From a virus: a stretch of DNA of 64,000 nt. Numbering within the stretch: the stretch's first letter is position 1; each line of letters starts with the position of its first letter. The notes beneath the pieces are model-generated. The model made no database searches, was not told where the DNA came from, and saw nothing but the letters and a program-made list of their open reading frames with translations. Positions 2,957 to 62,578 of this stretch are shown one piece after another. The stretch lies in IMG/VR virus record IMGVR_UViG_3300000062_000468, one strand, 5' to 3'. Position numbers and translations under genes: made by a program.

Positions 2957-3030
2957 TTGCGGGAGTGAGATTTGAACTCACGACCTTCAGCTTATGAGGC
3001 TGACGAGCTACCAGACTGCTCTATCCCGCA
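2957..3030 (-). tRNA. tRNA-Met(CAT) with an initiator-like body but atypical identity elements
   Basis: Cloverleaf TGCGGGA..AGCAGTCTGGTAGCT..TCAGC-CTCATAA-GCTGA..GTGAG-TTCAAAT-CTCAC..TCCCGCA-A. No encoded CCA. Confidence 0.9.
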
Positions 3031-3035
3031 CTAAA

Positions 3036-3108
3036 TTGGAAGTGACAGATTTGAACTGCCGACGCTAAGATCTTCAATCTTACGCTCTACCAATTGAGCT
3101 AACTTCCA
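3036..3108 (-). tRNA. tRNA-Phe(GAA)
   Basis: Anticodon arm TAAGA-TTGAAGA-TCTTA and T-loop TTCAAAT. No CCA. Confidence 0.9.
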
Positions 3109-3117
3109 TTAAGTATA

Positions 3118-3190
3118 TGGGCTATTAAGGGCTTGAACTTTAGACTTACCAGTTAAAAGCTGGCTACTCTACCAACTGAGTTAATAGCCC
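3118..3190 (-). tRNA. tRNA-Lys(TTT)
   Basis: Acceptor GGGCTAT/ATAGCCC and anticodon arm GCCAG-CTTTTAA-CTGGT. No CCA. Confidence 0.85.
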
Positions 3191-3195
3191 AAAAC

Positions 3196-3253
3196 TGACT
3201 AGATTGGAATTGAACCAACGACTTCTCGGTTATACCAACTGAACTACTAGTCA
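3196..3253 (-). pseudogene. Internally deleted tRNA (Asn-like remnant)
   Basis: Acceptor stem and T-arm (GTTGG-TTCAATT-CCAAT) are intact. About 15 nt from the 3' D-arm through the anticodon are missing, leaving TAACCGAG. Confidence 0.65.
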
Positions 3254-3311
3254 AAAATAGAATGCCGTCGTAACGCCATCCTACAAAACGGTAAATCGTT
3301 CATTAATTTCA

Positions 3312-3394
3312 TGAGAGGGGATGGAGTCGAACCACCCGAATCCGAAGATGACTGAGTTACAATCAGCGCCGCTACCCCTACGGTATACCCTCCC
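3312..3394 (-). tRNA. tRNA-Tyr(GTA)
   Basis: Anticodon arm CTGA-TTGTAAC-TCAG, long variable arm, T-loop TTCGACT. No CCA. Confidence 0.9.
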
Positions 3395-3395
3395 A

Positions 3396-3425
3396 AAATA
3401 AAAGAGGGTAGTATTAACCACCCTC
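3396..3425 (-). terminator. Intrinsic terminator after the holin gene
   Basis: Minus strand GAGGGTGG-TTAATA-CTACCCTC followed by TTTTATTTT. Confidence 0.65.
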
Positions 3426-3437
3426 AGTTCATATTAA

Positions 3438-3719
3438 TTATTCTATTTCAGTATTCTTATGACCATTAATTATCTGTGTAAATGCCTGATGTAATCCAGT
3501 TGAAGCCAATCCAGTAACAGCACCAGCCACAATATCTTGTAACGAAACTCCGCCAACATTAATACAAGCCAGAACAGCACCAATTACAGCAAGAATAGTT
3601 GGAATATACTCATCGGCAACCACATCTAACCATTTGATGTTTTTAATACAAAAGCCAATAACTAAACAAGCCACTAATACTAGTGGTACATAATAATCCG
3701 TTAAAAAACTTAAATCCAT
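3438..3719 (-). CDS. Phage holin
   Basis: 93 aa with three hydrophobic segments and the GLASTGLHQ motif typical of Firmicutes phage holins. Confidence 0.8.
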   Translation of the reverse strand: MDLSFLTDYYVPLVLVACLVIGFCIKNIKWLDVVADEYIPTILAVIGAVLACINVGGVSLQDIVAGAVTGLASTGLHQAFTQIINGHKNTEIE

Positions 3720-3736
3720 AATTTAATCCTCCTATA

Positions 3737-4249
3737 CTATACCAAGTCGCCAAATGCTTTGAATATTTTGGCTAATCCACCATCTACGTCTAATATATCA
3801 ATCAACTCTTCAAGACTAATAGAACCTTCTTCTAAACAAGCACATCCATTACAATTACATTCTTCGTCACAATCATCATCTAAAACTAGAACATCATAAT
3901 TACTACAAGATTGTGCAATCAACCATTTACTAGGAACGTCTTCGTCAATCAACATATAATCAGCACAACAGTCTAAATAATTACCGACACCAGAACAAAT
4001 TGACTCAATGGCAATATCACCGTATCCAATACTTACTTCGTAGAATAAATCTTCATCATCTGGATTTACCTTCGCTAATAATACATCCATGTCATAATCT
4101 TCAACTAAGATACTAAAACATTTCAATGCCTCTTCTCTGCGTAGAATAACTACAACACGGCTATCTTCGTCATATTCCTCGCTAATATCTAACATATATT
4201 CGACGACATCTTCTACAGAATTAACTTCTATTAAATAATCATTTTTCAT
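3737..4249 (-). CDS. Acidic hypothetical protein
   Basis: 170-aa ORF with GGAGG RBS, co-oriented with its neighbours. Confidence 0.7.
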   Translation of the reverse strand: MKNDYLIEVNSVEDVVEYMLDISEEYDEDSRVVVILRREEALKCFSILVEDYDMDVLLAKVNPDDEDLFYEVSIGYGDIAIESICSGVGNYLDCCADYMLIDEDVPSKWLIAQSCSNYDVLVLDDDCDEECNCNGCACLEEGSISLEELIDILDVDGGLAKIFKAFGDLV

Positions 4250-4264
4250 TTTTATTTCCTCCGT

Positions 4265-5485
4265 TTATTCAAGGTCTATTGGATATGCTCCAACAATTCC
4301 GTTTTTATTAATTACACATGCCAATTGTGCAGCTTTTCCAGATAATCTTTTTTCAATGGTGTAATCACAACCACTTCCACTCAAGCAACCACCTCGCAGC
4401 ATCTTAATACCATTCGCATCATCCAATGCCGGAGTATGCATATGAGCAAATGTCACTCCATATGGAAACATTTTCAACATACTACATAATTTAAGAACAC
4501 CTTGAGTCGTAAATGGGTCGTAATCTCCGTGGACATTAAGAAAATCTAAACCTCGTATTGTCATCTTAGAAATACCGACATCGATATTATTTTCAATAAA
4601 TGTGAAGTTTTTGGTGTATTTGAGCGTTTTTTTCACAAAACGTCCTATCAAATTATCAAGACGCTCATCTTTTAACGCTTCATCCTTTTTTGTCATGCGA
4701 CTATGGTTGCCAGAAACATCAGTCACATATACATGTGTAAAATGTTTGCACAATTCATAACAAAAAGATGAGATATATTCTACGGCAAGTTCGATTTGGT
4801 CAATGACATTTTCTCTGTTCGCAACTTGAATTGTTTTGTGAATATTGCCCGATATTAAATCACCTGAAATAGATATATAACAATTTTCGGAATTGTGTAA
4901 TCTAGCAAGCTGTAAAATAGAAGATAGGTATTTATCCAATCGTTCTTTTGCTATATCTGAGTTATATTCTCCAAAAGGTGACGAGAAACATTGCCCTAAA
5001 TGCAAGTCTGACAATATAACCATCATGTCGTTATCAGAAGTAATACAAGGAGCATCCTTTAGTTCAAACTCAACTTTACCGAACGCCTCCATGCGTTCTT
5101 CTAAATAGTCCAATTTTTCTTGAACTCTTGAATCAATGAAATTTTGTTTTTGCCATGCGTTACGCTGATCCCTAAATTGAATTTTTGCTCGTTCTAATTC
5201 ACGGATTTTAATATCTAATTCTTTTTCTCTATTAGATGCACTTGCTAAATCAAAAACTCCTTCATCATAAAAACAGTTTGCATATTGAACTTTTTTTCGC
5301 AATGCAGACTCGTCTACATATTTCGGATTTTCTTCATCTTTAAAAAATTCACGATTAATAATATCAATACAATCACTCCAATGTGGTAATTGTTTACTTT
5401 CTATCTTCTTTCCGATGCGCCATAAGTAATGATATTTTTTTTCGTCAGGCTTTCGGATTAATTCGTTTAAATTATATGTACTAAT
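4265..5485 (-). CDS. Calcineurin-like metallophosphoesterase with N-terminal coiled coil; probable ATT start at 5485
   Basis: Motifs SDLHLG, GDLI, GNH, HGD and HMH. The frame stays open for 61 codons upstream of the annotated TTG (5302), up to an ATT preceded by AAAGGGTGA. Confidence 0.8.
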   Translation of the reverse strand: MSTYNLNELIRKPDEKKYHYLWRIGKKIESKQLPHWSDCIDIINREFFKDEENPKYVDESALRKKVQYANCFYDEGVFDLASASNREKELDIKIRELERAKIQFRDQRNAWQKQNFIDSRVQEKLDYLEERMEAFGKVEFELKDAPCITSDNDMMVILSDLHLGQCFSSPFGEYNSDIAKERLDKYLSSILQLARLHNSENCYISISGDLISGNIHKTIQVANRENVIDQIELAVEYISSFCYELCKHFTHVYVTDVSGNHSRMTKKDEALKDERLDNLIGRFVKKTLKYTKNFTFIENNIDVGISKMTIRGLDFLNVHGDYDPFTTQGVLKLCSMLKMFPYGVTFAHMHTPALDDANGIKMLRGGCLSGSGCDYTIEKRLSGKAAQLACVINKNGIVGAYPIDLE

Positions 5486-5499
5486 AAGAAATCACCCCT

Positions 5500-5703
5500 T
5501 TATCCTAATTCTTGTTCGGTATCTTGTTCGAGAACAAGTTCCTCATCATCTTTAAGTTTCAGTTGAAGCTCTACGAACTCATCAGCGAATTCATTTAGCG
5601 AATCATCAATATTAATTGATTCACCTTCAGCATCTAATAACCCTGCCGCCTTGAGAGTAGTAGTGGTAGATTTCTTATAACTCATAGCATTTTTAGCCAT
5701 CAT
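5500..5703 (-). CDS. Small acidic protein, YonK-like
   Basis: GGAGG RBS before ATG ATG GCT. Size, sequence start (MAKNAMSYKK) and position resemble SPbeta yonK. Confidence 0.5.
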   Translation of the reverse strand: MMAKNAMSYKKSTTTTLKAAGLLDAEGESINIDDSLNEFADEFVELQLKLKDDEELVLEQDTEQELG

Positions 5704-5871
5704 TAATTTCCTCCGTTTATTCTTAATATTCGTGTTTTCGTGCAAAATGCACTATATAAAATATTTAATGTCGTGAAAAATTTGTGAAAATTTCCAATAT
5801 ACTATTTTTAAAATGTAAGATATACTGTAGTTAGTGAATTTTTAAATATTTTTAGTGTGATAAAACAAACA

Positions 5872-6039
5872 TTATAAAGTTTTTGCTTTATCAGCATAAT
5901 AATCTTCAATGTATCGCCTGTTTACTGTTTTTGTAAAACCAATATGATTTCCATTTTTAGTCATGAAGCCATTATGGTTTTGCATTATAAATTCATTATC
6001 TAATAACTTTTTAACTTCGTATTTTGTTATCTGTTTGAT
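5872..6039 (-). CDS. 55-aa hypothetical protein with probable ATC start
   Basis: AAGGAG lies 8 nt before ATC AAA CAG; the frame is open to the TAA at 5872. Not in the ORF track. Confidence 0.45.
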   Translation of the reverse strand: MKQITKYEVKKLLDNEFIMQNHNGFMTKNGNHIGFTKTVNRRYIEDYYADKAKTL

Positions 6040-6358
6040 AGTAAGAACTCCTTTTATCTATTTATTTGATAGAGGGTGTCTGGTTATTAAAAAGTCAATT
6101 TTAATAACCAGTACCATACCATTAGTTTACAAAAACACCCATTCCAAAGGGTTACATCAGAAACATCAACATCATAACAATGTATCGTCAAAGAGAGGTT
6201 ATTGGAATAACCGACAAGTCGGCATATTAAAACTTAGACTAATTATGAAAAAGTGTCACCTTATTCATGTATAGTTTTTTGTGCGCCTCACGATGACTAA
6301 TCGTTGCTACACTCAGGATGAAAATGATTACTGAGAGAATCGAACTCTCAGTTACCAA

Positions 6359-6430
6359 GGTGACTAACGGGATTTGAACCCGTGATATCAGAACCACAAT
6401 CTGAAGGTTTACCAACTAACCTATAGTCAC
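6359..6430 (-). tRNA. tRNA-His(GTG)
   Basis: Acceptor GTGACTA/TAGTCAC, C73, anticodon arm TCAGA-TTGTGGT-TCTGA. Position -1 is T rather than G. No CCA. Confidence 0.85.
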
Positions 6431-6432
6431 AG

Positions 6433-6505
6433 TGACTGATGGGAGACTTGAACTCACCATTATATCCTTGAAAGAGATATGTGCTTGCCTTTACACTAAT
6501 CAGCC
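6433..6505 (-). tRNA. tRNA-Glu(TTC)
   Basis: Anticodon arm TATCT-CTTTCAA-GGATA. One T-stem mismatch. No CCA. Confidence 0.8.
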
Positions 6506-54299: not shown

Positions 54300-55337
54300 A
54301 TGACAGAAGATAATCAAAGTGATTTTGAAAAAGTAACAGATTTTTCTAATTTATATAAAGCATATAAGAAGTCTAAACTAGGGAAAGGTTACAGTAAAAG
54401 CAGTATGAAGTTTCAAGTGTCTGCGCTTGATGGGATATATCAGATAAAGCGAAGACTAGAAACGAAACAATACATAGTGTCAAAGTATAACGAGTTCAAG
54501 ATATATGAACCAAAAGAGCGAATTATAAAAGCGTGTTCGTTTCAAGACAAGATAATTCAACATAGTCTTTGTGACAATGTGCTAATGCCTTTATTTAAAG
54601 ATGAATTTATCTTAGATAATTACGCCGGACAAATCGGCAAGGGAACATTATTTGGACTTGACCGCTTATCAGAACAGATGAGTTTAGCGTACAAAGAGTT
54701 TGGAATGAACTGTTGGATTTTAAAAGCTGATGTACGGAAGTTCTTTTACAATATTAATCATGACATCTTAAAGAAAATCGTGAAGAAACATGTGAAAGAT
54801 GAAGACGTATATTGGTTGTGTGAAAAGTTTATTGATAGTACCGATGGATTAGGATTGCCATTAGGAAATCAGATTAGTCAATTATTTGCTTTATTATATC
54901 TTTCGGGAATGGATCATTTCATCACAGAAGATTTGGGTATTAAATATTATGGGCGATACATGGATGATTTCTGCTTGATACACGAGGACAAGAATCATTT
55001 AAAACACTGTTTAGCTGAAATAAACAATGTGGTTAGTAAACTCGAATTAGAGCTAAATGAGAAAACTCAAATTATGCCGTTTAAAAATGGAATTAAGTTT
55101 TGTGGTTTTCATACATATGTTACCAGTGATGGTAAAGTGATTAGAAAATTGAAGAATGAAAACAAGCGTGCTGCTAAGAAAAAATATAAAAGAATGGCAC
55201 GGTTGATTAAACAAGGTAAGCTGAGTAGAGAAAAGTTTGATGAGTCATATGGTGCGTGGAAGAACCATATTTCACATGGGAATTGTGTGAAGCTCGGTGT
55301 TGAGATGGATAGGTATATTGCAGAGTTATTTGAGTGA
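54300..55337 (+). CDS. DGR reverse transcriptase
   Basis: FSNLYKAY, KERII..FQDKIIQH, KADVRKFF, GLPLGNQISQ (DGR LGxxxSQ signature), YMDD and FCG. Confidence 0.95.
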   Translation: MTEDNQSDFEKVTDFSNLYKAYKKSKLGKGYSKSSMKFQVSALDGIYQIKRRLETKQYIVSKYNEFKIYEPKERIIKACSFQDKIIQHSLCDNVLMPLFKDEFILDNYAGQIGKGTLFGLDRLSEQMSLAYKEFGMNCWILKADVRKFFYNINHDILKKIVKKHVKDEDVYWLCEKFIDSTDGLGLPLGNQISQLFALLYLSGMDHFITEDLGIKYYGRYMDDFCLIHEDKNHLKHCLAEINNVVSKLELELNEKTQIMPFKNGIKFCGFHTYVTSDGKVIRKLKNENKRAAKKKYKRMARLIKQGKLSREKFDESYGAWKNHISHGNCVKLGVEMDRYIAELFE

Positions 55338-56087: not shown

Positions 56088-56702
56088 ATGTTAGAAAAGA
56101 TTACAGAAAAAATACAATTATTACCAAAAAAACCAAACGATGGAGAAGTATTATGTGAGCGTTGTGGCGGTATCGGTTATTTAATTAATAAAGAATACGG
56201 ATACATAGAGCATTGTGGAGAGTGTTATGGAACAGGCTCTAAGCCAGTATGTGAAATTTGTGGACAGCCTAAATGGGGTATGTGTAAAAATCGTAAATGT
56301 CGTGTTGAAATTGATAGACGAAATGAACAAAGGCTATTAGATAAAGCGACTAAATGTGAGATTGAAGAAGTTTCTAGTGAATTTACAGAGATGTTCTATT
56401 CTGAAAGTTATGGGGGTGAAGGATTTTTCACCGAAATTGAAGAACTTGTAGAATATTGTGAGGACGAAGATATTACTATACCAGACTATGTGTGGGTTAC
56501 ACAAAAAGTAGAATTGTCGCTAGATGCATATGGTATTTTGGAAAGTACATGTGAGGAATTACACGAAGATGCTCTTAGTAATCTGACGAATATTAATGGT
56601 CTACAAGAATTGCTAGATAAGTGGGTAGATACACAAGGCGGTCAAAGCACTTATTACCCATACTACAAATATGCAATTAAGGTGCATAAGGAAGCCAAAT
56701 AG
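56088..56702 (+). CDS. DnaJ-type zinc-finger protein
   Basis: CERCGGIG, CGECYGTG and CEICG..C. Confidence 0.75.
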   Translation: MLEKITEKIQLLPKKPNDGEVLCERCGGIGYLINKEYGYIEHCGECYGTGSKPVCEICGQPKWGMCKNRKCRVEIDRRNEQRLLDKATKCEIEEVSSEFTEMFYSESYGGEGFFTEIEELVEYCEDEDITIPDYVWVTQKVELSLDAYGILESTCEELHEDALSNLTNINGLQELLDKWVDTQGGQSTYYPYYKYAIKVHKEAK

Positions 56703-56755: not shown

Positions 56756-57295
56756 ATGAACAAAGATAAAATTTTAGTAGTGGTAGATATGCAAAATGAT
56801 TTTATTACAGGGTCATTAGGTACACCAGAGGCACAAGCAATAGTACCTAAAGTGGTAGATAAAATCAGAGAATGGGATAGCGTGATTTTGGCGACTATGG
56901 ACACTCATGGTGCAGACTATTTGGATACACAAGAAGGTAAGAACTTGCCGGTTGAACATTGTATGCATCGTACAGAAGGGCAATTCATAGTTGAGGAAGT
57001 ATCTGATTTACTGTGGGATAAAACCCAAATATTCCCAAAGAATACATTTGGTAGCGTGAATTTGGCATGTGGTATTAATGATTTATATAAAGAAGGATAT
57101 GTAGAAGTGGTGTTGATTGGCGTATGTACGGATATTTGTGTGATTTCAAACGCCCTTCTAATCAAAGCATTTTGTCCTGAAATCAAGATTACCGTAGATG
57201 CAACTTGTTGTGCCGGTGTAACACCAGATAGTCATAAGAATGCGTTAGAAGCAATGAAGATGTGTCAGATTAATATAGTGGGAGAAGATGAGTAG
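56756..57295 (+). CDS. pncA: Nicotinamidase (isochorismatase family)
   Basis: VVDMQNDF, DTH, HC, K in FPKNTF, and catalytic C in GVCTDICV. Confidence 0.9.
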   Translation: MNKDKILVVVDMQNDFITGSLGTPEAQAIVPKVVDKIREWDSVILATMDTHGADYLDTQEGKNLPVEHCMHRTEGQFIVEEVSDLLWDKTQIFPKNTFGSVNLACGINDLYKEGYVEVVLIGVCTDICVISNALLIKAFCPEIKITVDATCCAGVTPDSHKNALEAMKMCQINIVGEDE

Positions 57296-58111
57296 ATGAT
57301 TAAAATTAACAACGAGAAGTTAGAAGTAAATAAGTTTCCCGATGGGACATTTCGCTTAAACTATTTGACTGATACAGAGGGTTATAAAATTGAATGGATT
57401 TACGAAGACGATTCGGAAGCAATGTTATTGTATTACCTTGTTAACCACATAAGAGAAAATGTCTATGATTCTATAATCGGTTTGAATATGAAATATTGCA
57501 GCAATGCACGAATGGACAGAACACAACAAGATGAAGAAGTGTTCACTTTAAAATGGTTTTCTAAATTTATAAACAGTATGAAATTTGACTCAGTTACAAT
57601 AGAAGATCCGCATTCAAATGTAGTGCCAGCACTATTAGATAATGTTCATGTTACATATGACTTTCAAAATGCTGTGGAAGAAGAAATGAAAAAAGATGCT
57701 AACAATACAGTATTATTCTTTCCTGATAATGGTGCGGCATCTAAATATACAAGGTTTTACACACACCCCTATGCTTATGGGTTAAAACATAGAGACTGGA
57801 AGACAGGTGAAATTCAGGGGTTAGAGGTTGTTACTAATGGATTAGACATGAAAAATAAAAAAGTAATAATTGTAGATGACATATCAAGTTACGGAACAAC
57901 CTTTTTATACTCAGCAAAAGCATTAAAAGAACTAGGAGTTGGAGATATTACATTATGTGTAACTCACTGTGAGAATAGTGTACTAGATGGCGAAATGATT
58001 AAAAGTGATTTAATCAGCAAAATTATTACGACTGACTCTATCTTTACAGGGGAACATGACAAGATTGAAGTGAAAAGATGGTATAGAGGAGAAAAGAATG
58101 AAGAGAACTAA
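57296..58111 (+). CDS. PRPP-synthetase-like enzyme (Adps-like)
   Basis: FPDGT, ARMDR, DPHS, FPDNGA, KHRD and IVDDISSYGTTF. Confidence 0.85.
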   Translation: MIKINNEKLEVNKFPDGTFRLNYLTDTEGYKIEWIYEDDSEAMLLYYLVNHIRENVYDSIIGLNMKYCSNARMDRTQQDEEVFTLKWFSKFINSMKFDSVTIEDPHSNVVPALLDNVHVTYDFQNAVEEEMKKDANNTVLFFPDNGAASKYTRFYTHPYAYGLKHRDWKTGEIQGLEVVTNGLDMKNKKVIIVDDISSYGTTFLYSAKALKELGVGDITLCVTHCENSVLDGEMIKSDLISKIITTDSIFTGEHDKIEVKRWYRGEKNEEN

Positions 58112-59612
58112 TCCAGTATTATTAATTGACTTTTATAAGGCAACACACGCAGAACAATTTCCGAAAGGATTAACAAAACTTGTTTCGTATTTTACACCAC
58201 GAATGAGTAGATTGAAGCACGAGAATAAGTTGATTCTATTTGGACTACAAGGTTTCATCAAAACATATTTGATTGACTATTTCAATGAATACTTCTTTCA
58301 ACAAAGCGAAGACGATGTAGTTGGTGAATATGAGAGGGTGTTAAACGCAACATTAGGTAAGAATACATATAAGAGTGAAAAGATTCGTGAATTACACAAA
58401 TTAGGATATTTACCTATTCAAATCAATGCATTACCAGAAGGTACTAGAGTTCCGATTCACGTACCAATGATTGAAATGACAAATACTCATCCGGATTTTG
58501 CATGGTTGGTACAGGCGTTAGAATCATTAATGTCAGCCGAATTATGGCATCCTATGGTGTCAGCAAATGTAGGCTACAGATATCGTCAAATAGTCAACGA
58601 GTGGTTTGACAAGACCGTTGAAGACGATATTCCACGTAAGAGAGCATTAGGAGACTTCTCATTTAGGGGTCAAGAGAGTTTACAATCAGCAGAAAAAAGT
58701 TCGGCTGCATGGTTATTGAGTTTTGTAAACACATCTAATGTGCCAGCAATTCTTTATTTAGAGAATAATTACAATTGTGATTGTGAAAAAGAAGAAGTTG
58801 GATTTGGTGCTGTGAGTACAGAGCATAGTTGTATGTGTTCGAATTTTTCAGTAGATGGGGATGAGAGAACCCACGTAAAGAGATTGTTAGAAGAAATTTA
58901 TCCAGACTGTAATTTTAGTATGGTAAGTGATTCTTACGACTATTGGAAGATGTTGACCGAAACATTACCCAGTTTGAAAACTGAGATTATGAACCATAAT
59001 GGGAAGCTGATCGTCCGTCCGGACTCAGGAAATCCAGCAGATATTATTTGTGGGACTTGTTCAGCAGGAGGAAATACACCAGAAGAAAAGGGTTCTATCG
59101 AAGTTCTCTGGGAACAGTTTGGTGGGACTATAAACTCTAAGGGGTATAAAGTGTTAGACCAACATGTTGGTCTTGTATATGGCGATTCAATCACTATTCA
59201 AAGAGCAGAGGATATTTATAGAAGATTAGAAGCGAAAGGATTTGCTGCTAATAATGTTTCATTGGGAGTAGGAAGTTTTTCCATGCAATGTATGGAAGAA
59301 GATGGAGAGCTAAAGCCGTTCACACGAGACACGTACGCTATGGCATTTAAGGCAACTTACGGCGAAATTAATAGAGAACCTATTATGATTTTCAAAAATC
59401 CTAAAACAGATAGTGGTTTTAAGAAATCTCAGAGAGGTATTTGTTGTGTATTCAAAGATGGTGATGGTGAAATTGCCTATGCTGATGGTTTCGACAAGTA
59501 TGTGAGATTTAACGAAGCTAACCTGTTAATGAAAGTGTTTAAAGACGGCGAAATGATTAGAACATCTTTGCTTCAAGACATAAGAAAGAGACTACATGGA
59601 GGTGACTTTTAA
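58098..59612 (+). CDS. Nampt/Namat-family phosphoribosyltransferase
   Basis: DFYKATH, FTPR, DFSFRG, STEHS, VSDSYD, RPDSG, GDSIT and GVGS. Confidence 0.9.
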   Translation: MKRTNPVLLIDFYKATHAEQFPKGLTKLVSYFTPRMSRLKHENKLILFGLQGFIKTYLIDYFNEYFFQQSEDDVVGEYERVLNATLGKNTYKSEKIRELHKLGYLPIQINALPEGTRVPIHVPMIEMTNTHPDFAWLVQALESLMSAELWHPMVSANVGYRYRQIVNEWFDKTVEDDIPRKRALGDFSFRGQESLQSAEKSSAAWLLSFVNTSNVPAILYLENNYNCDCEKEEVGFGAVSTEHSCMCSNFSVDGDERTHVKRLLEEIYPDCNFSMVSDSYDYWKMLTETLPSLKTEIMNHNGKLIVRPDSGNPADIICGTCSAGGNTPEEKGSIEVLWEQFGGTINSKGYKVLDQHVGLVYGDSITIQRAEDIYRRLEAKGFAANNVSLGVGSFSMQCMEEDGELKPFTRDTYAMAFKATYGEINREPIMIFKNPKTDSGFKKSQRGICCVFKDGDGEIAYADGFDKYVRFNEANLLMKVFKDGEMIRTSLLQDIRKRLHGGDF

Positions 59613-60400
59613 TGGGGTATAAATTTGACGCAAAGAAAACAACCGAAGATTTAATTCAATGGATTAGAAACTGGTTTGAGGGAAATGGTAAGGATTGTAA
59701 TGCAGTGATTGGTATTTCTGGTGGTAAAGACTCTTCTGTAGTAGCTAAATTGTGTGTAGAGGCATTAGGTGATGATAGAGTTGTTGGTGTGCTTATGCCA
59801 GATGGTGAACAATATGATATTGATATCTCAAAAAGTGTATGTGAATATCTGAATATTCAAAATTATGAAATTAATGTTGGTGGTGCTACATTAGGGGTAA
59901 TAAGGTCATTGTTTAATTCGGATATTGAAATATCAGAACAGGCGAGGATTAACATGCCAGCTAGAATACGAATGACAACATTATACGCAGTATCTCAATC
60001 CATGAATGGTAGAGTAGCAAATACATGCAATCTATCAGAAGATTGGGTTGGATACTCAACAAGATATGGTGATAGTGTTGGTGATTTCAGTCCACTAAGT
60101 AATTTAACTGTTACAGAAGTAATTGCTATTGGTGAATATTTAGGAATACCCGATAAATTTATTCATAAGACACCTAGCGATGGCTTGTGTGGTATGACGG
60201 ACGAAAAAAATCTTGGATTTACATATGAAGTTTTAGACAAATATATTCGTGAAGGTGTTATTGAAGATATTGAGATTCAAGAAAAGATTGAAGATATGCA
60301 TAATAAGAATTTGTTCAAATTAAGATTGATGGATTGTTTCCCGTATCATATTGAGAAATGGCAATACAATTCAGAGTGGCACATGTTGGAGAAAGTGTAG
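59612..60400 (+). CDS. nadE: NH3-dependent NAD+ synthetase
   Basis: GISGGKDSSV, ARIRM, NLSEDWVGYSTRYGD and PSDGL..TDE. No glutaminase domain. Confidence 0.95.
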   Translation: MGYKFDAKKTTEDLIQWIRNWFEGNGKDCNAVIGISGGKDSSVVAKLCVEALGDDRVVGVLMPDGEQYDIDISKSVCEYLNIQNYEINVGGATLGVIRSLFNSDIEISEQARINMPARIRMTTLYAVSQSMNGRVANTCNLSEDWVGYSTRYGDSVGDFSPLSNLTVTEVIAIGEYLGIPDKFIHKTPSDGLCGMTDEKNLGFTYEVLDKYIREGVIEDIEIQEKIEDMHNKNLFKLRLMDCFPYHIEKWQYNSEWHMLEKV

Positions 60401-60403
60401 GAG

Positions 60404-61135
60404 GTGATTGAAATAGATAAGGTAAAACAAATAGTAAAAGATGAATTTAGGGGATGGAAGTTTTGGGAATTAGCATGGATGGCTATTGCCGTATTGACAA
60501 TCATAGCGGTGTCTATATATTGGAATGAAAGTTTAATAGGAGTCATCTCGGCAGTAACAGGAGTTATTTGTGTTATATGTACAGGAAAAGGGAAGCTGTC
60601 TGCGTATGTTTTTGGCGCAATAAATACGTTGTTGTATGCAATCATAGCCTTTCAAGTTAAGTATTATGGCGAAGTTATGCTTAATGCACTTTATTACTTC
60701 CCACTACAATTTTATGGTTTATACGTTTGGGCTAAACATATGAATCCAGAAACTAATGAAGTTATTAAAATTAGGATGAGTAATAAAAGCCGTGCGATTA
60801 TATTTGGCGCTGTTGCCATAGTTACTTTAGTTTATGGATATGTGTTACAACTAATGGGTGGCAATTTACCATACATAGATGCATTAAGCACAGTTGTCTC
60901 AGTAGTAGCAATGGTTATATCTATTAAAATGTATATGGAACAATGGATTCTCTGGATTTTTGTGGATATCGTCACAGTAATTATGTGGGCTGTCGCATTT
61001 ATGCGAGGAAGCGAAAGTATTGCGACTTTGTTAATGTGGGTTGTCTATCTGGCTAATGCAGTCATTATGTATGTGAAATGGAGTAAAGAGGCTAATAGTA
61101 GAAGTAGCAAAGAGGTGATAGCTAGTGAAATATAA
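60404..61135 (+). CDS. pnuC: PnuC-family nicotinamide riboside transporter
   Basis: Multi-TM protein with KGK..YVFG, YG...W..W, D...T and EQW..W..VD motifs. Confidence 0.9.
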   Translation: MIEIDKVKQIVKDEFRGWKFWELAWMAIAVLTIIAVSIYWNESLIGVISAVTGVICVICTGKGKLSAYVFGAINTLLYAIIAFQVKYYGEVMLNALYYFPLQFYGLYVWAKHMNPETNEVIKIRMSNKSRAIIFGAVAIVTLVYGYVLQLMGGNLPYIDALSTVVSVVAMVISIKMYMEQWILWIFVDIVTVIMWAVAFMRGSESIATLLMWVVYLANAVIMYVKWSKEANSRSSKEVIASEI

Positions 61136-62162
61136 AGTTGGAATGTATGGTGGGTCTTTTGATCCTCTACATTTGGGACATATACATGATATTATCCGTG
61201 CAGCATCAGTGTGTGAAGAATTATATGTGATTATAAGTTGGTGTGAAGGAAGAGAAACCGTTTGTAAAGAACTTATATATCGGTGGATATACAACAATAG
61301 TAAACATCTACATAATGTAACAATTTTAATGTTAGAAGACAAAGCGGTTAGCAAAGAAGAATACGATTCAGATTACTATTGGGAAAAGGGTGCTAATGAT
61401 ATTAAAAACCTTATAGGTAAGCCCATCAATGCAGTATTTTGTGGTTCTGATTATAAAGACAGTGGTCGCTTTGAGGGTTTATATTGTCCGGAAAGCGAAG
61501 TGATTTATTTTGACAGGAGTGAAGTTCCAATTAGTTCTACAGAATTAAGAGATGATATTTACGAAAACTGGCAGTACATACCGCCTATCTGTAGACCCTA
61601 TTACACGAAAAAAGTACTAGTGGTCGGAGGGGAAAGCACAGGGAAGTCAACGTTGGTTAAGAATTTGGCAATTGCCTATAACACAAATTATGTGCGAGAG
61701 ATAGGCAGAGATACTTGCGAAGTTGCTGGCGGTGAAGGTTTTATGAATCAAGATGATTTAATTGAAAATCTTTTGCGCCAAAAGACAGAAGAAATAAAAG
61801 CTGTAGAACAAAGTAATCGCATATTGTTTATTGATACAGATGCAGTTACAACAAAATTTTATTCACAGTTCCTACTAACAGACGTAGAGCAGTTAGAAAG
61901 TTGTAACTTATTAGCAGACGCAATCAGTAGATTAAATAGTTTTGATTTGGTACTGTTTCTCGAACCAACAGTGGAGTTTGTGCAGGACGGAACAAGAAGT
62001 GAAGAAATAGCGTCTGATAGAGAAAAATATAGTTCAGCAATTAAAAAATTATTGGATGATGCTAATATCTTATACCACAGTATTGATGGTGATTATTTGG
62101 AAAGATTTAATAAGGCTAAATGGTTGATTGCAAAAAGATTAGGTATTGTATCTAAATTTTAG
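61125..62162 (+). CDS. nadR: NadR-like bifunctional NMN adenylyltransferase / NR kinase (no HTH domain)
   Basis: GGSFDPLHLGH, ISSTE.R, P-loop GGESTGKST and IDTD. Confidence 0.9.
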   Translation: MKYKVGMYGGSFDPLHLGHIHDIIRAASVCEELYVIISWCEGRETVCKELIYRWIYNNSKHLHNVTILMLEDKAVSKEEYDSDYYWEKGANDIKNLIGKPINAVFCGSDYKDSGRFEGLYCPESEVIYFDRSEVPISSTELRDDIYENWQYIPPICRPYYTKKVLVVGGESTGKSTLVKNLAIAYNTNYVREIGRDTCEVAGGEGFMNQDDLIENLLRQKTEEIKAVEQSNRILFIDTDAVTTKFYSQFLLTDVEQLESCNLLADAISRLNSFDLVLFLEPTVEFVQDGTRSEEIASDREKYSSAIKKLLDDANILYHSIDGDYLERFNKAKWLIAKRLGIVSKF

Positions 62163-62164
62163 AA

Positions 62165-62578
62165 ATGACTATAAATAAGGAGTTCTGTATGGATAACATA
62201 AACCGTGGTTTAAGTAGTACGGAAGTATTTAAACGGGTAGAAGATATGTGTATAAAGAGGATGGATAGAGGATTTGATTGGGATAGGTATAAGAAAGAAA
62301 ATATCGCTGTTAGTTGTAAAACGTTAGAGGAAGCTAGGGATTTTCGTAAAGTAGTAAAAGTTAGAAATGACATGACTTGGTATAACCATTACGCCGAAGA
62401 TTGTCGATTACGTGATTTTTATAATGAAGAAGATTGGTGTTTTACGTGCGAGACAGAATCTAGTGAATTAGGTGGATTTGTTAATGGTGGAAGCGTGGTA
62501 GTTATATATGGTATAGAAGTTGCTAAAGACCACAATTATCAAATACTAGAATGGTCTGATTATATGCTAACCAAATAG
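62165..62578 (+). CDS. Hypothetical protein
   Basis: Co-oriented 137-aa ORF. Confidence 0.65.
   Translation: MTINKEFCMDNINRGLSSTEVFKRVEDMCIKRMDRGFDWDRYKKENIAVSCKTLEEARDFRKVVKVRNDMTWYNHYAEDCRLRDFYNEEDWCFTCETESSELGGFVNGGSVVVIYGIEVAKDHNYQILEWSDYMLTK

Follow-up and report, generated by a model that had tools for sequence, protein, structure and literature searches.

A candidate nicotinate-type variant of NARP1, joined to a NARP3-like module in a phage operon

Depletion of nicotinamide adenine dinucleotide (NAD+) is among the commonest outcomes of bacterial immunity, in systems such as Thoeris, DSR, SIR2-HerA, SEFIR and pAgo, and the reconstitution of NAD+ by phages is a recently recognised counter-strategy. 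In the stretch of viral DNA analysed here, the 64,000 nucleotides of IMG/VR record IMGVR_UViG_3300000062_000468 (the window), a six-gene operon at 56756-62162 raises a question about this strategy: why does a gene pair resembling that of NAD+ reconstitution pathway 1 (NARP1) lie between a nicotinamidase (PncA) and an NAD+ synthetase (NadE), and why is it followed by a nicotinamide-riboside transporter (PnuC) and a NadR-like protein? NARP1, which consists of Adps and Namat, has been described in phages SPbetaL1, Bas63 and ICP1, and in Paenibacillus foliorum (Osterman et al. preprint 10.1101/2024.02.11.579819; PMC12774641; PMC13586617).

We propose that the operon holds two modules. In the first (56756-60400), a nicotinate-type version of NARP1, PncA would deamidate nicotinamide to nicotinate; the Adps-like kinase would convert ADP-ribose (ADPR) and ATP to ADP-ribose pyrophosphate (ADPR-PP); the Namat-like transferase, altered in its pocket (Asp215Ser, Ala242Ser and Gly213Asn), would join nicotinate and ADPR-PP to deamido-NAD (NaAD) directly; and the NH3-dependent NadE would amidate NaAD to NAD+. 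In the second (60404-62162), which matches NARP3, PnuC would import nicotinamide riboside, and the NadR-like protein would turn it into nicotinamide mononucleotide (NMN) and then NAD+. Judging from comparative genomics, nicotinate is likely to be the intermediate through which the cassette works; direct formation of NaAD from ADPR-PP by the transferase is a less firm but still probable reading.

Layout of the operon and the pocket of its transferase

The preliminary description of this DNA, made from its letters, had read six abutting or overlapping genes at this locus, and the open reading frame (ORF) list of the window and the family profiles agree on them: PncA, Adps-like, Namat-like, NadE, PnuC and NadR. 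All six lie on the + strand between 56756 and 62162, and their junctions are, in order, a 0-nt gap, a 14-nt overlap, a 1-nt overlap, a 3-nt gap and an 11-nt overlap. The genes and the transferase codons discussed below are as follows:

56756..57295, + strand: pncA-like nicotinamidase, 179 aa (PF00857 2.6e-20)
57296..58111, + strand: Adps-like PRPS-fold pyrophosphokinase, 271 aa (38% to SPbetaL1 Adps)
58098..59612, + strand: Namat-like Nampt-fold transferase of the non-Asp (putatively nicotinate-type) branch, 504 aa, P0001 (NF006629)
58728..58736, + strand: codons Asn211, Thr212 and Ser213 (Namat Gly213, Thr214 and Asp215), from the ungapped alignment to Namat and NAMPT
58815..58817, + strand: codon of Ser240 (Namat Ala242, a nicotinamide-pocket residue), from the alignment
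59289..59318, + strand: insertion of 9-10 residues in the helix motif of the adenine selectivity clamp (residues 398-407), from the alignment to Namat
59612..60400, + strand: nadE, single-domain NH3-dependent NAD+ synthetase, 262 aa (PF02540 1.7e-50)
60404..61135, + strand: pnuC nicotinamide-riboside transporter, 243 aa (PF04973 1.8e-46)
61125..62162, + strand: nadR-like NMN adenylyltransferase (NMNAT) and ribosylnicotinamide kinase (RNK) without a helix-turn-helix (HTH) region, 345 aa (TIGR01526 194 bits)

The transferase belongs by its family profiles to NAMPT_N and NAPRTase (NF006629 467 bits), is 46% identical to SPbetaL1 Namat, and finds 9W5X and 9W5W, the structures of SPbetaL1 Namat with nicotinamide and with NAD+, at the top of a phmmer search against solved structures. 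The structural comparison with NAMPT, NAPRT and Namat that the preliminary description had proposed points the same way. An AlphaFold2 model of the protein (57-sequence alignment; predicted local distance difference test score, pLDDT, 90.4) matches 9W5X best, with template modelling (TM) scores of 0.91/0.95 and a root-mean-square deviation of 1.8 Å, and gives lower TM scores with H. ducreyi NadV (0.87/0.92) and with mammalian NAMPT (0.83/0.89); canonical NAPRT is absent from its top 50 structural matches.

The nicotinamide-selecting residue of human NAMPT is Asp219, which the preliminary description had proposed to be Ser in this protein, within the stretch AWLLSFVNTSN. The stretch is present, and the codon at 58734-58736 is TCT, encoding Ser213, which aligns gap-free with Asp215 of SPbetaL1 Namat (9W5X, FTGTDT) and with the GTD motif of bacterial and mammalian NAMPT (LSFVNTSNVPAILY in the window, LSFTGTDTIPAILY in Namat). 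Because the local alignment has no gaps, Ser213 is the counterpart of Namat Asp215 and human NAMPT Asp219. In the Namat crystal, Asp215 hydrogen-bonds nicotinamide, and the D215A mutation cuts NAD+ formation about 8-fold (PMC12774641). For human NAMPT, the table of a review citing Khan 2006 lists a loss of activity for D219A and a switch of substrate for D219S.

The geometry of the pocket was taken from the alignment to 9W5X. The transferase keeps the catalytic His243 as well as Arg190, Arg307 and Asp309, and of the adenine clamp it keeps Arg38, at the place of the stacking Arg or Lys of the clamp loop, as well as Phe394, Thr409, Arg410 and Asp411. The clamp motif itself reads GSFSMQCMEEDGELKPFTRD, compared with GSFTYQYNTRD in Namat. 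Relative to the clamp consensus GSX-phi-X-phi-X-phi-TRD, whose third and seventh positions are aromatic, the Phe at position 3 and the TRD are kept and the aromatic at position 7 is lost; the insertion is modelled as a beta-hairpin with pLDDT 75-79.

The non-Asp branch of the Namat family and its gene neighbourhoods

To place these substitutions, all ligand-contacting residues of the Namat crystals were mapped onto 29 sequences that have the Asp (Asp-type) and 138 that do not (non-Asp). Of the ligand contacts, just these tell the two branches apart: Gly213, replaced by Asn or Lys; Asp215, replaced by Ala or Ser; Ala242, replaced by Ser; and the region of Tyr396. Positions 213, 215 and 242 all surround the carboxamide; they read Gly, Asp and Ala in 28-29 of the 29 Asp-type sequences, and Asn or Lys, Ala or Ser, and Ser in 137-138 of the 138 non-Asp sequences, with position 242 being Ala in 29/29 and Ser in 138/138. 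Invariant across both branches are the catalytic His, Arg192, Arg306, Asp308, Gly360 and Asp361, and the clamp-loop residue Arg40 (133/138), as well as Phe392 (137/138) and Thr398-Arg399-Asp400, is kept in the non-Asp branch.

Ser at the key position is not what defines this branch. Among the 120 nearest database relatives (53-90% identity), 118 have Ala there and 2 have Ser, to which the Ser of the window is added, and all 120 have Ser at the position of Namat Ala242 and an insertion in the clamp motif. The family as a whole (E <1e-30) has 1,234 members; among 150 representatives examined at 50% clustering, about 100 are of the Gly/Asp/Ala type and about 50 are non-Asp, and diverse non-Asp representatives have Ala and Ser at a ratio of about 3:2. 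We rejected Ser as a defining feature, since Ala is commoner and the traits common to the branch are the absence of Asp and the change of Ala242 to Ser. The preliminary description was right in that the Asp is lost, and its emphasis on Ser gives way to a set of changes in which those at Gly213 and Ala242 travel along.

In a family tree computed without the trait columns, a single branch, with a support of 100 in the Shimodaira-Hasegawa-like approximate likelihood-ratio test (SH-aLRT), divides all 100 Asp-type rows from the 46 non-Asp rows. A sub-clade with the clamp insertion (SH-aLRT 95) is nested in the non-Asp branch, the transferase of the window has a deep position in it, and ten non-Asp rows with the canonical short Namat clamp (for example GSYTYQYVTRD) lie outside it. 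Within the non-Asp branch, sequences from viruses are interleaved with those from bacteria, with at least four switches between phages and bacteria.

Some family members have unusual architectures. Three Asp-type representatives (P0158, P0201 and P0258) carry insertions of about 300 residues exactly within the clamp motif, with intein-like ends (at the start, GS[FY] then C; at the end, SHN then TYQ). Lengths of 550-900 aa, with the match divided among two or three stretches, are seen in many further representatives, and the match to several Bacillus phage genes falls into two pieces. P0141 (L198 6001-8379) is a short-clamp non-Asp transferase with an N-terminal extension of about 300 residues to which no function was assigned; L198 is a phage-like contig that also carries PncA, an Adps-like gene and NadE.

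Gene neighbourhoods were collected from IMG/VR scans with the window transferase and SPbetaL1 Namat (88 viral loci) and from a species-genome scan with a pattern specific to the non-Asp branch (274 genomes, 80 of them fetched). Neighbours were counted within 8 kb after sequences more than 92% identical had been removed:

Non-Asp viral loci, n=16: PncA 14, Adps-like 15, NadE 15, NrtR 0
Non-Asp bacterial loci, n=59: PncA 56, Adps-like 59, NadE 51, NrtR 45
Asp-type loci, n=22: PncA 0, Adps 21, NadE 0, NrtR 0

The non-Asp transferase is strictly co-inherited with PncA, the Adps-like gene and NadE, an association that covers 80 non-redundant loci; a PncA homologue lies near 70 of the 75 non-redundant non-Asp loci and near none of the 22 Asp-type loci. 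The order of the genes varies (PncA-Adps-PRT-NadE, Adps-PRT-NadE-PncA, NrtR-Adps-PncA-PRT-NadE, or dispersed, PRT being the phosphoribosyltransferase-like gene), and the gene set persists. In the basal lineages of the branch with a short clamp, the Adps-like gene and NadE are found in 5/5 and PncA in 4/5, the fifth contig being just 4.3 kb long. These counts speak strongly for the deamidating variant proposed in the preliminary description, in which PncA would supply nicotinate, the Asp is lost and NadE would finish the synthesis. The co-occurrence with pncA and nadE that the same description had suggested surveying for the Ser variant is seen for the non-Asp type at large, in which Ala is commoner than Ser.

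The cassette is found in at least 274 species, mostly gut Clostridia and often with nrtR, and also in many uncultured phages. In GenBank phages, the non-Asp type occurs in 1 of 50,697 records (the uncultured faecal contig MT835544.1), all others being at most 47% identical. A NadD-like gene was found by tblastn in 0/176 related loci; in five of five cassette-bearing genomes checked, NadD is encoded elsewhere. Copies of the cassette also lie on short contigs binned into Methanomassiliicoccaceae, Methanofilum, Azoarcus and Bacteroidaceae metagenome-assembled genomes (MAGs; L145, L146, L154 and L173), which horizontal transfer or mis-binned phage or Clostridia contigs could explain.

The regulator that often accompanies the bacterial cassettes is known to sense the proposed substrate: ADP-ribose is an in-vitro effector of NrtR that releases it from DNA (PMC2330246). 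The same study described in Shewanella, Acinetobacter and Chromobacterium a prs-nadV operon under NrtR whose prs is a second, dedicated paralogue, and called it puzzling (PMC2330246). Given NARP1, those prs-nadV pairs may merit a look for Adps and Namat signatures.

The ribosyl donor and the alternatives

The partners of the transferase bear on its chemistry. The PncA-like protein and its best solved relative, the P. horikoshii pyrazinamidase/nicotinamidase 1ILW, can be aligned from end to end, and the catalytic Asp/Lys/Cys triad and the Asp-His-His metal site of 1ILW are kept. Over its full length the kinase shares 38% identity with SPbetaL1 Adps, a validated enzyme (E 8e-57); its identity to canonical Prs from bacteria that carry the cassette is just 22-23%. 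As a ribose-phosphate diphosphokinase it scores 88 bits, under the ribP_PPkin cut-off of 113 bits. Its PP-loop, DDISSYGTTF, is of the Adps type (DDLSSFGGTF or DDICDGGxTF) as opposed to DDMIDTAGT in canonical Prs, and its length of 271 aa, against 272 aa for SPbetaL1 Adps, gives it the short C-terminus of Adps, which is without the C-terminal helices of PRPS (PMC13586617). NadE (TIGR00552 171 bits) has P. horikoshii NadE 2E18 as its best solved relative and Francisella 3FIU as the second-best, and in bacterial cassettes its slot holds either an NH3-type or a two-domain glutamine-dependent enzyme.

The window pair is like NARP1 in many respects: an Adps-type kinase adjoins a Nampt-fold transferase, the two genes overlapping by 14 nt; identity to the SPbetaL1 pair is 38% for the kinase and 46% for the transferase, with 9W5X as the best structural match; and the catalytic core is the same, with Arg40, Phe392 and the TRD of the adenine clamp kept. 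It differs from NARP1 in Asp215 to Ser, Ala242 to Ser, Gly213 to Asn and the clamp insertion of 9-10 residues, and in that PncA and NadE, absent from NARP1, accompany the non-Asp pair; the predicted product is NaAD, not NAD+. The window is also distinct from NARP2 (a nicotinamide-specific Nampt with Asp and a NatV-type NMNAT, NMNAT-Nudix), considering that its Asp is replaced, the partner of its transferase is an Adps-type kinase and its NMNAT is found in a NadR that also has a kinase domain.

The preliminary description had offered two outcomes for nicotinate in this operon, direct formation of NaAD from ADPR-PP or formation of nicotinate mononucleotide (NaMN) from phosphoribosyl pyrophosphate (PRPP). 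The nicotinate route common to both is supported; between the two, we lean towards nicotinate + ADPR-PP -> NaAD, because the kinase is of the Adps type, Prs and PncB coexist with the cassette, Arg40 and Phe392 are kept and NrtR is linked. Canonical Prs is present elsewhere in 5/5 cassette-bearing genomes checked and canonical PncB (NF006695) in 3/5; the presence of PncB weakens the idea that the transferase is a mere stand-in for a missing one. The exact clamp signature of Namat (GSYTYQY.TRD) persists in the basal lineages of the non-Asp branch, and in the R40A/F392G double mutant of Namat the ADPR-PP-driven synthesis of NAD+ is abolished and the PRPP-driven synthesis of NMN is not (PMC12774641).

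Several observations weigh against this reading. Namat also accepts PRPP in vitro (PMC12774641). In the sub-clade of the window, the clamp is remodelled, with the second aromatic, Tyr396, gone and a hairpin of 9-10 residues added, so adenine binding may differ there. In the two genomes of five that have no canonical PncB, the transferase could be the sole nicotinate phosphoribosyltransferase. Pocket type and neighbours became linked at one split of the tree (SH-aLRT 100) and so count as one evolutionary event, long retained. Finally, the bacterial homologues look like housekeeping genes, being NrtR-regulated and chromosomally flanked, and it is by analogy that the phage operon is given a counter-defence role. 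What the sequences show are the gene identities, the pocket substitutions and their co-inheritance with the neighbouring genes; that nicotinate and ADPR-PP are the substrates, that NaAD is the product and that the operon counters NAD+-depleting defence we infer.

The first two of these points are also what would be expected from a Preiss-Handler pathway on a Nampt fold, in which the Prs-like kinase would make PRPP, the transferase NaMN and the host NadD NaAD, with NadE finishing. Such a pathway would agree with the NCBIfam placement of the transferase in PRK09198, named nicotinate phosphoribosyltransferase, with the two of five genomes that lack another NAPRTase-family gene, and with the NadD encoded elsewhere in all five. 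In classical Preiss-Handler operons, of which nrtR-pncA-pncB-nadD-nadE in Clostridium acetobutylicum is one example (PMC2330246), PncA and NadE likewise frame the pyridine-transferase step, and NrtR is often linked; the window differs in having neither a canonical PncB (the only matching model of its transferase, NF006629, is of the NadV/Nampt type) nor NadD, and in pairing a Nampt/Namat-fold transferase with an Adps-type kinase. Against this pathway stand the type of the kinase, which is that of Adps and not of the coexisting Prs, the retention of adenine-clamp residues that matter only for ADPR-PP (with the full Namat clamp in basal members), the missing linkage of NadD, the PncB of three of the five genomes and the linkage of ADPR-sensing NrtR; we consider it unlikely, but the most serious of the chemical alternatives. 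The transferase might otherwise still use nicotinamide, as an ordinary NARP1 enzyme beside which PncA and NadE are merely co-located salvage genes. Its fold, catalytic core and Adps partner are those of NARP1, but the nicotinamide-bonding Asp is replaced in all 138 members along with two further pocket changes, the corresponding Ala mutants of Namat and NAMPT are strongly impaired, and PncA and NadE accompany the non-Asp type nearly always and the Asp type never, which makes this reading highly improbable. Still less probable, and unlikely by our reckoning, is a Francisella-like route, in which the transferase would make NaMN, the NadE homologue would act as an NMN synthetase and the NMNAT domain of NadR would make NAD+. 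The Francisella enzyme among the NadE relatives and the NadR of the same operon would suit it; the best NadE relative is archaeal-type, however, and the assayed enzyme of this type, the NH3-dependent NadE of M. jannaschii, is NaAD-specific and without NMN synthetase activity (PMC3376133). In addition, NadR is absent from 16/16 viral and 56/59 bacterial cassettes in the non-redundant survey, and a two-domain glutamine-dependent NadE occupies the same slot.

A different alternative concerns the biological role and not the chemistry: the operon may be a general metabolic booster of NAD+ for a large phage rather than a counter-measure to NAD+-degrading enzymes (NADases). The closest full-length counterpart of the operon is a chromosomal, NrtR-regulated operon with ordinary flanking genes, and no defence or anti-defence gene was identified adjoining the operon in the window. 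On the other hand, the parent modules NARP1 and NARP3 experimentally rescue phages from NAD+-depleting systems, NrtR is lost from the phage copies (0/16 viral compared with 45/59 bacterial loci), and ADPR and nicotinamide build up mainly after NADase action. We regard the booster as a possibility of some substance, though doubtful, and prefer the counter-defence role, which the analogy with NARP1 and NARP3 suggests. The further idea that a deamidated intermediate might escape NADases is speculation.

The second module, origin of the operon and significance

The second module matches NARP3, which was published in August 2026 as the PnuC-like Bas30_87 and NadR-like Bas30_86 of Escherichia phage TrudiRoth (PMC13464706). 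PnuC of the window scores 141 bits (3.6e-41) with TIGR01528, above its cut-off, and the NadR-like protein (AAA_28 6.8e-29) has NMNAT and RNK domains; its 345 aa begin at position 63 of the full-length NadR model NF005988, past the HTH region, and its best solved relative is 9X6F, Bas30_86 itself. Both systems consist of adjacent pnuC and HTH-less nadR genes, with an 11-nt overlap in the window. They differ in that the window pair shares one operon with the nicotinate-type cassette and its phage has relatives among those of Bacillota, and the sequence relation is distant (141 bits). The parallel nicotinamide-riboside route of the preliminary description agrees with this match, but the route itself had already been published (PMC13464706).

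Where did the operon come from? The chromosomes of two Acetatifactor MAGs (L135 and L147) carry pncA-adpsL-prt-nadE-nrtR-pnuC-nadR, the order of the window plus nrtR, and the proteins are 55, 43, 60, 65, 52 and 66% identical to those of the window in operon order, nrtR aside; in L135 the flanks are ordinary cellular genes (SpoVAA, GGDEF-EAL, ABC permeases). From this comparison, the phage operon is homologous along its whole length to a bacterial operon, minus the regulator. The six genes and their order are the same, at 43-66% identity; the bacterial operons differ in encoding NrtR, a repressor that responds to ADPR, and in having Ala at the key position, whereas the phage has no nrtR and has Ser. 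We think it reasonably probable that the operon represents two NAD+-restoring modules acquired by the phage from Clostridia-type NAD salvage operons, without their regulator.

The PnuC-NadR extension was found within 8 kb in 0/16 of the non-redundant viral lineages surveyed. It recurs only in L043 (IMGVR_UViG_3300000114_000047), a contig of the window's own lineage that is 100% identical over the last 1.4 kb of the window and 92% over nadE-nadR. From the 3' part of the transferase gene to nadE, L043 has about 1.1 kb of unmatched sequence (348-1441) where the window has about 250 bp (59351-59598), and the transferases are just 72% identical as proteins, compared with 99% for NadR. The pattern suggests that a mosaic or recombination boundary runs through the operon.

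The surrounding DNA resembles that of a large phage, with PHROG matches to an integrase, Ant, a ParB-like protein, an exonuclease, an RNA ligase and a tRNA nucleotidyltransferase, and with proteins up to 59% identical to those of large Bacillus phages; a megablast of 24 kb against the phage collection found no close DNA relative. The ORFs flanking the operon (56088-56702 and 62165-62578) drew no functional assignment from Pfam or PHROG and matched only hypothetical proteins of phages in Atlas, and were not counted in the system. No NadD-like or NrtR-like gene was found in the window by tblastn, and a scan for promoters and terminators gave no more sites than shuffled sequence. Elsewhere in the window, six tRNA genes (Met, Phe, Lys, Tyr, His and Glu) lie at 2957-6505 on the - strand, next to the integrase-like gene, and the coding strand switches at about 16-20 kb, as is visible in GC skew. 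A reverse transcriptase at 54300-55337 (+ strand; RVT_1 9.6e-18), 1.4 kb upstream of the operon, scores 69 bits with Drt3a and 109 bits with a group II intron reverse transcriptase/maturase model, the latter being under the model's cut-off.

The preliminary description was not aware of this route as a phage anti-defence pathway. In the literature searched, we found no description of a nicotinate/NaAD version of NARP1, a search of incomplete coverage by which absence is not proven. The NARP1 preprint (10.1101/2024.02.11.579819) makes no mention of PncA, NadE or nicotinate; among the papers searched, "NARP1" and "nicotinic acid" co-occur only in the NARP3 paper (PMC13464706), as general background; and a November 2026 review covers just NARP1, NARP2 and the aRES phosphatase extension. 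What has to be corrected is the view of the route as phage-specific, as the cassette is a widespread chromosomal operon of gut Clostridia. The parent pathways are both known; new here is the probable nicotinate-type NARP1 variant stacked with NARP3, and particular to the window are its Ser state, its deep position in the insertion sub-clade and the NARP3 fusion in a phage.

On balance, we lean slightly towards a picture in which an unreported reaction, nicotinate + ADPR-PP -> NaAD + pyrophosphate, would provide a new route to NAD+ that bypasses NaMN and NadD; hundreds of gut Clostridia species would use it under NrtR for recycling triggered by ADP-ribose; and uncultured phages would use it, free of the regulator, as a fourth NAD+ reconstitution pathway, fused here with NARP3 into a dual-input operon. 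If true, this would add to NAD biochemistry a new activity, that of a nicotinate ADP-ribose transferase, along with a pathway in which NaMN adenylyltransferase is not required. Positions 213, 215 and 242, together with the PncA and NadE neighbours, would serve as the sequence rules that separate it from NARP1. Gut Clostridia and their phages would commonly possess the route, and surveys of cultured phages would miss it, because just one GenBank phage record carries it. NAD+-restoring modules can stack in a single operon, as this phage shows. The chromosomal NARP1-like genes would also find a physiological explanation, in which NrtR, by sensing ADPR, would turn on the recycling of ADPR.

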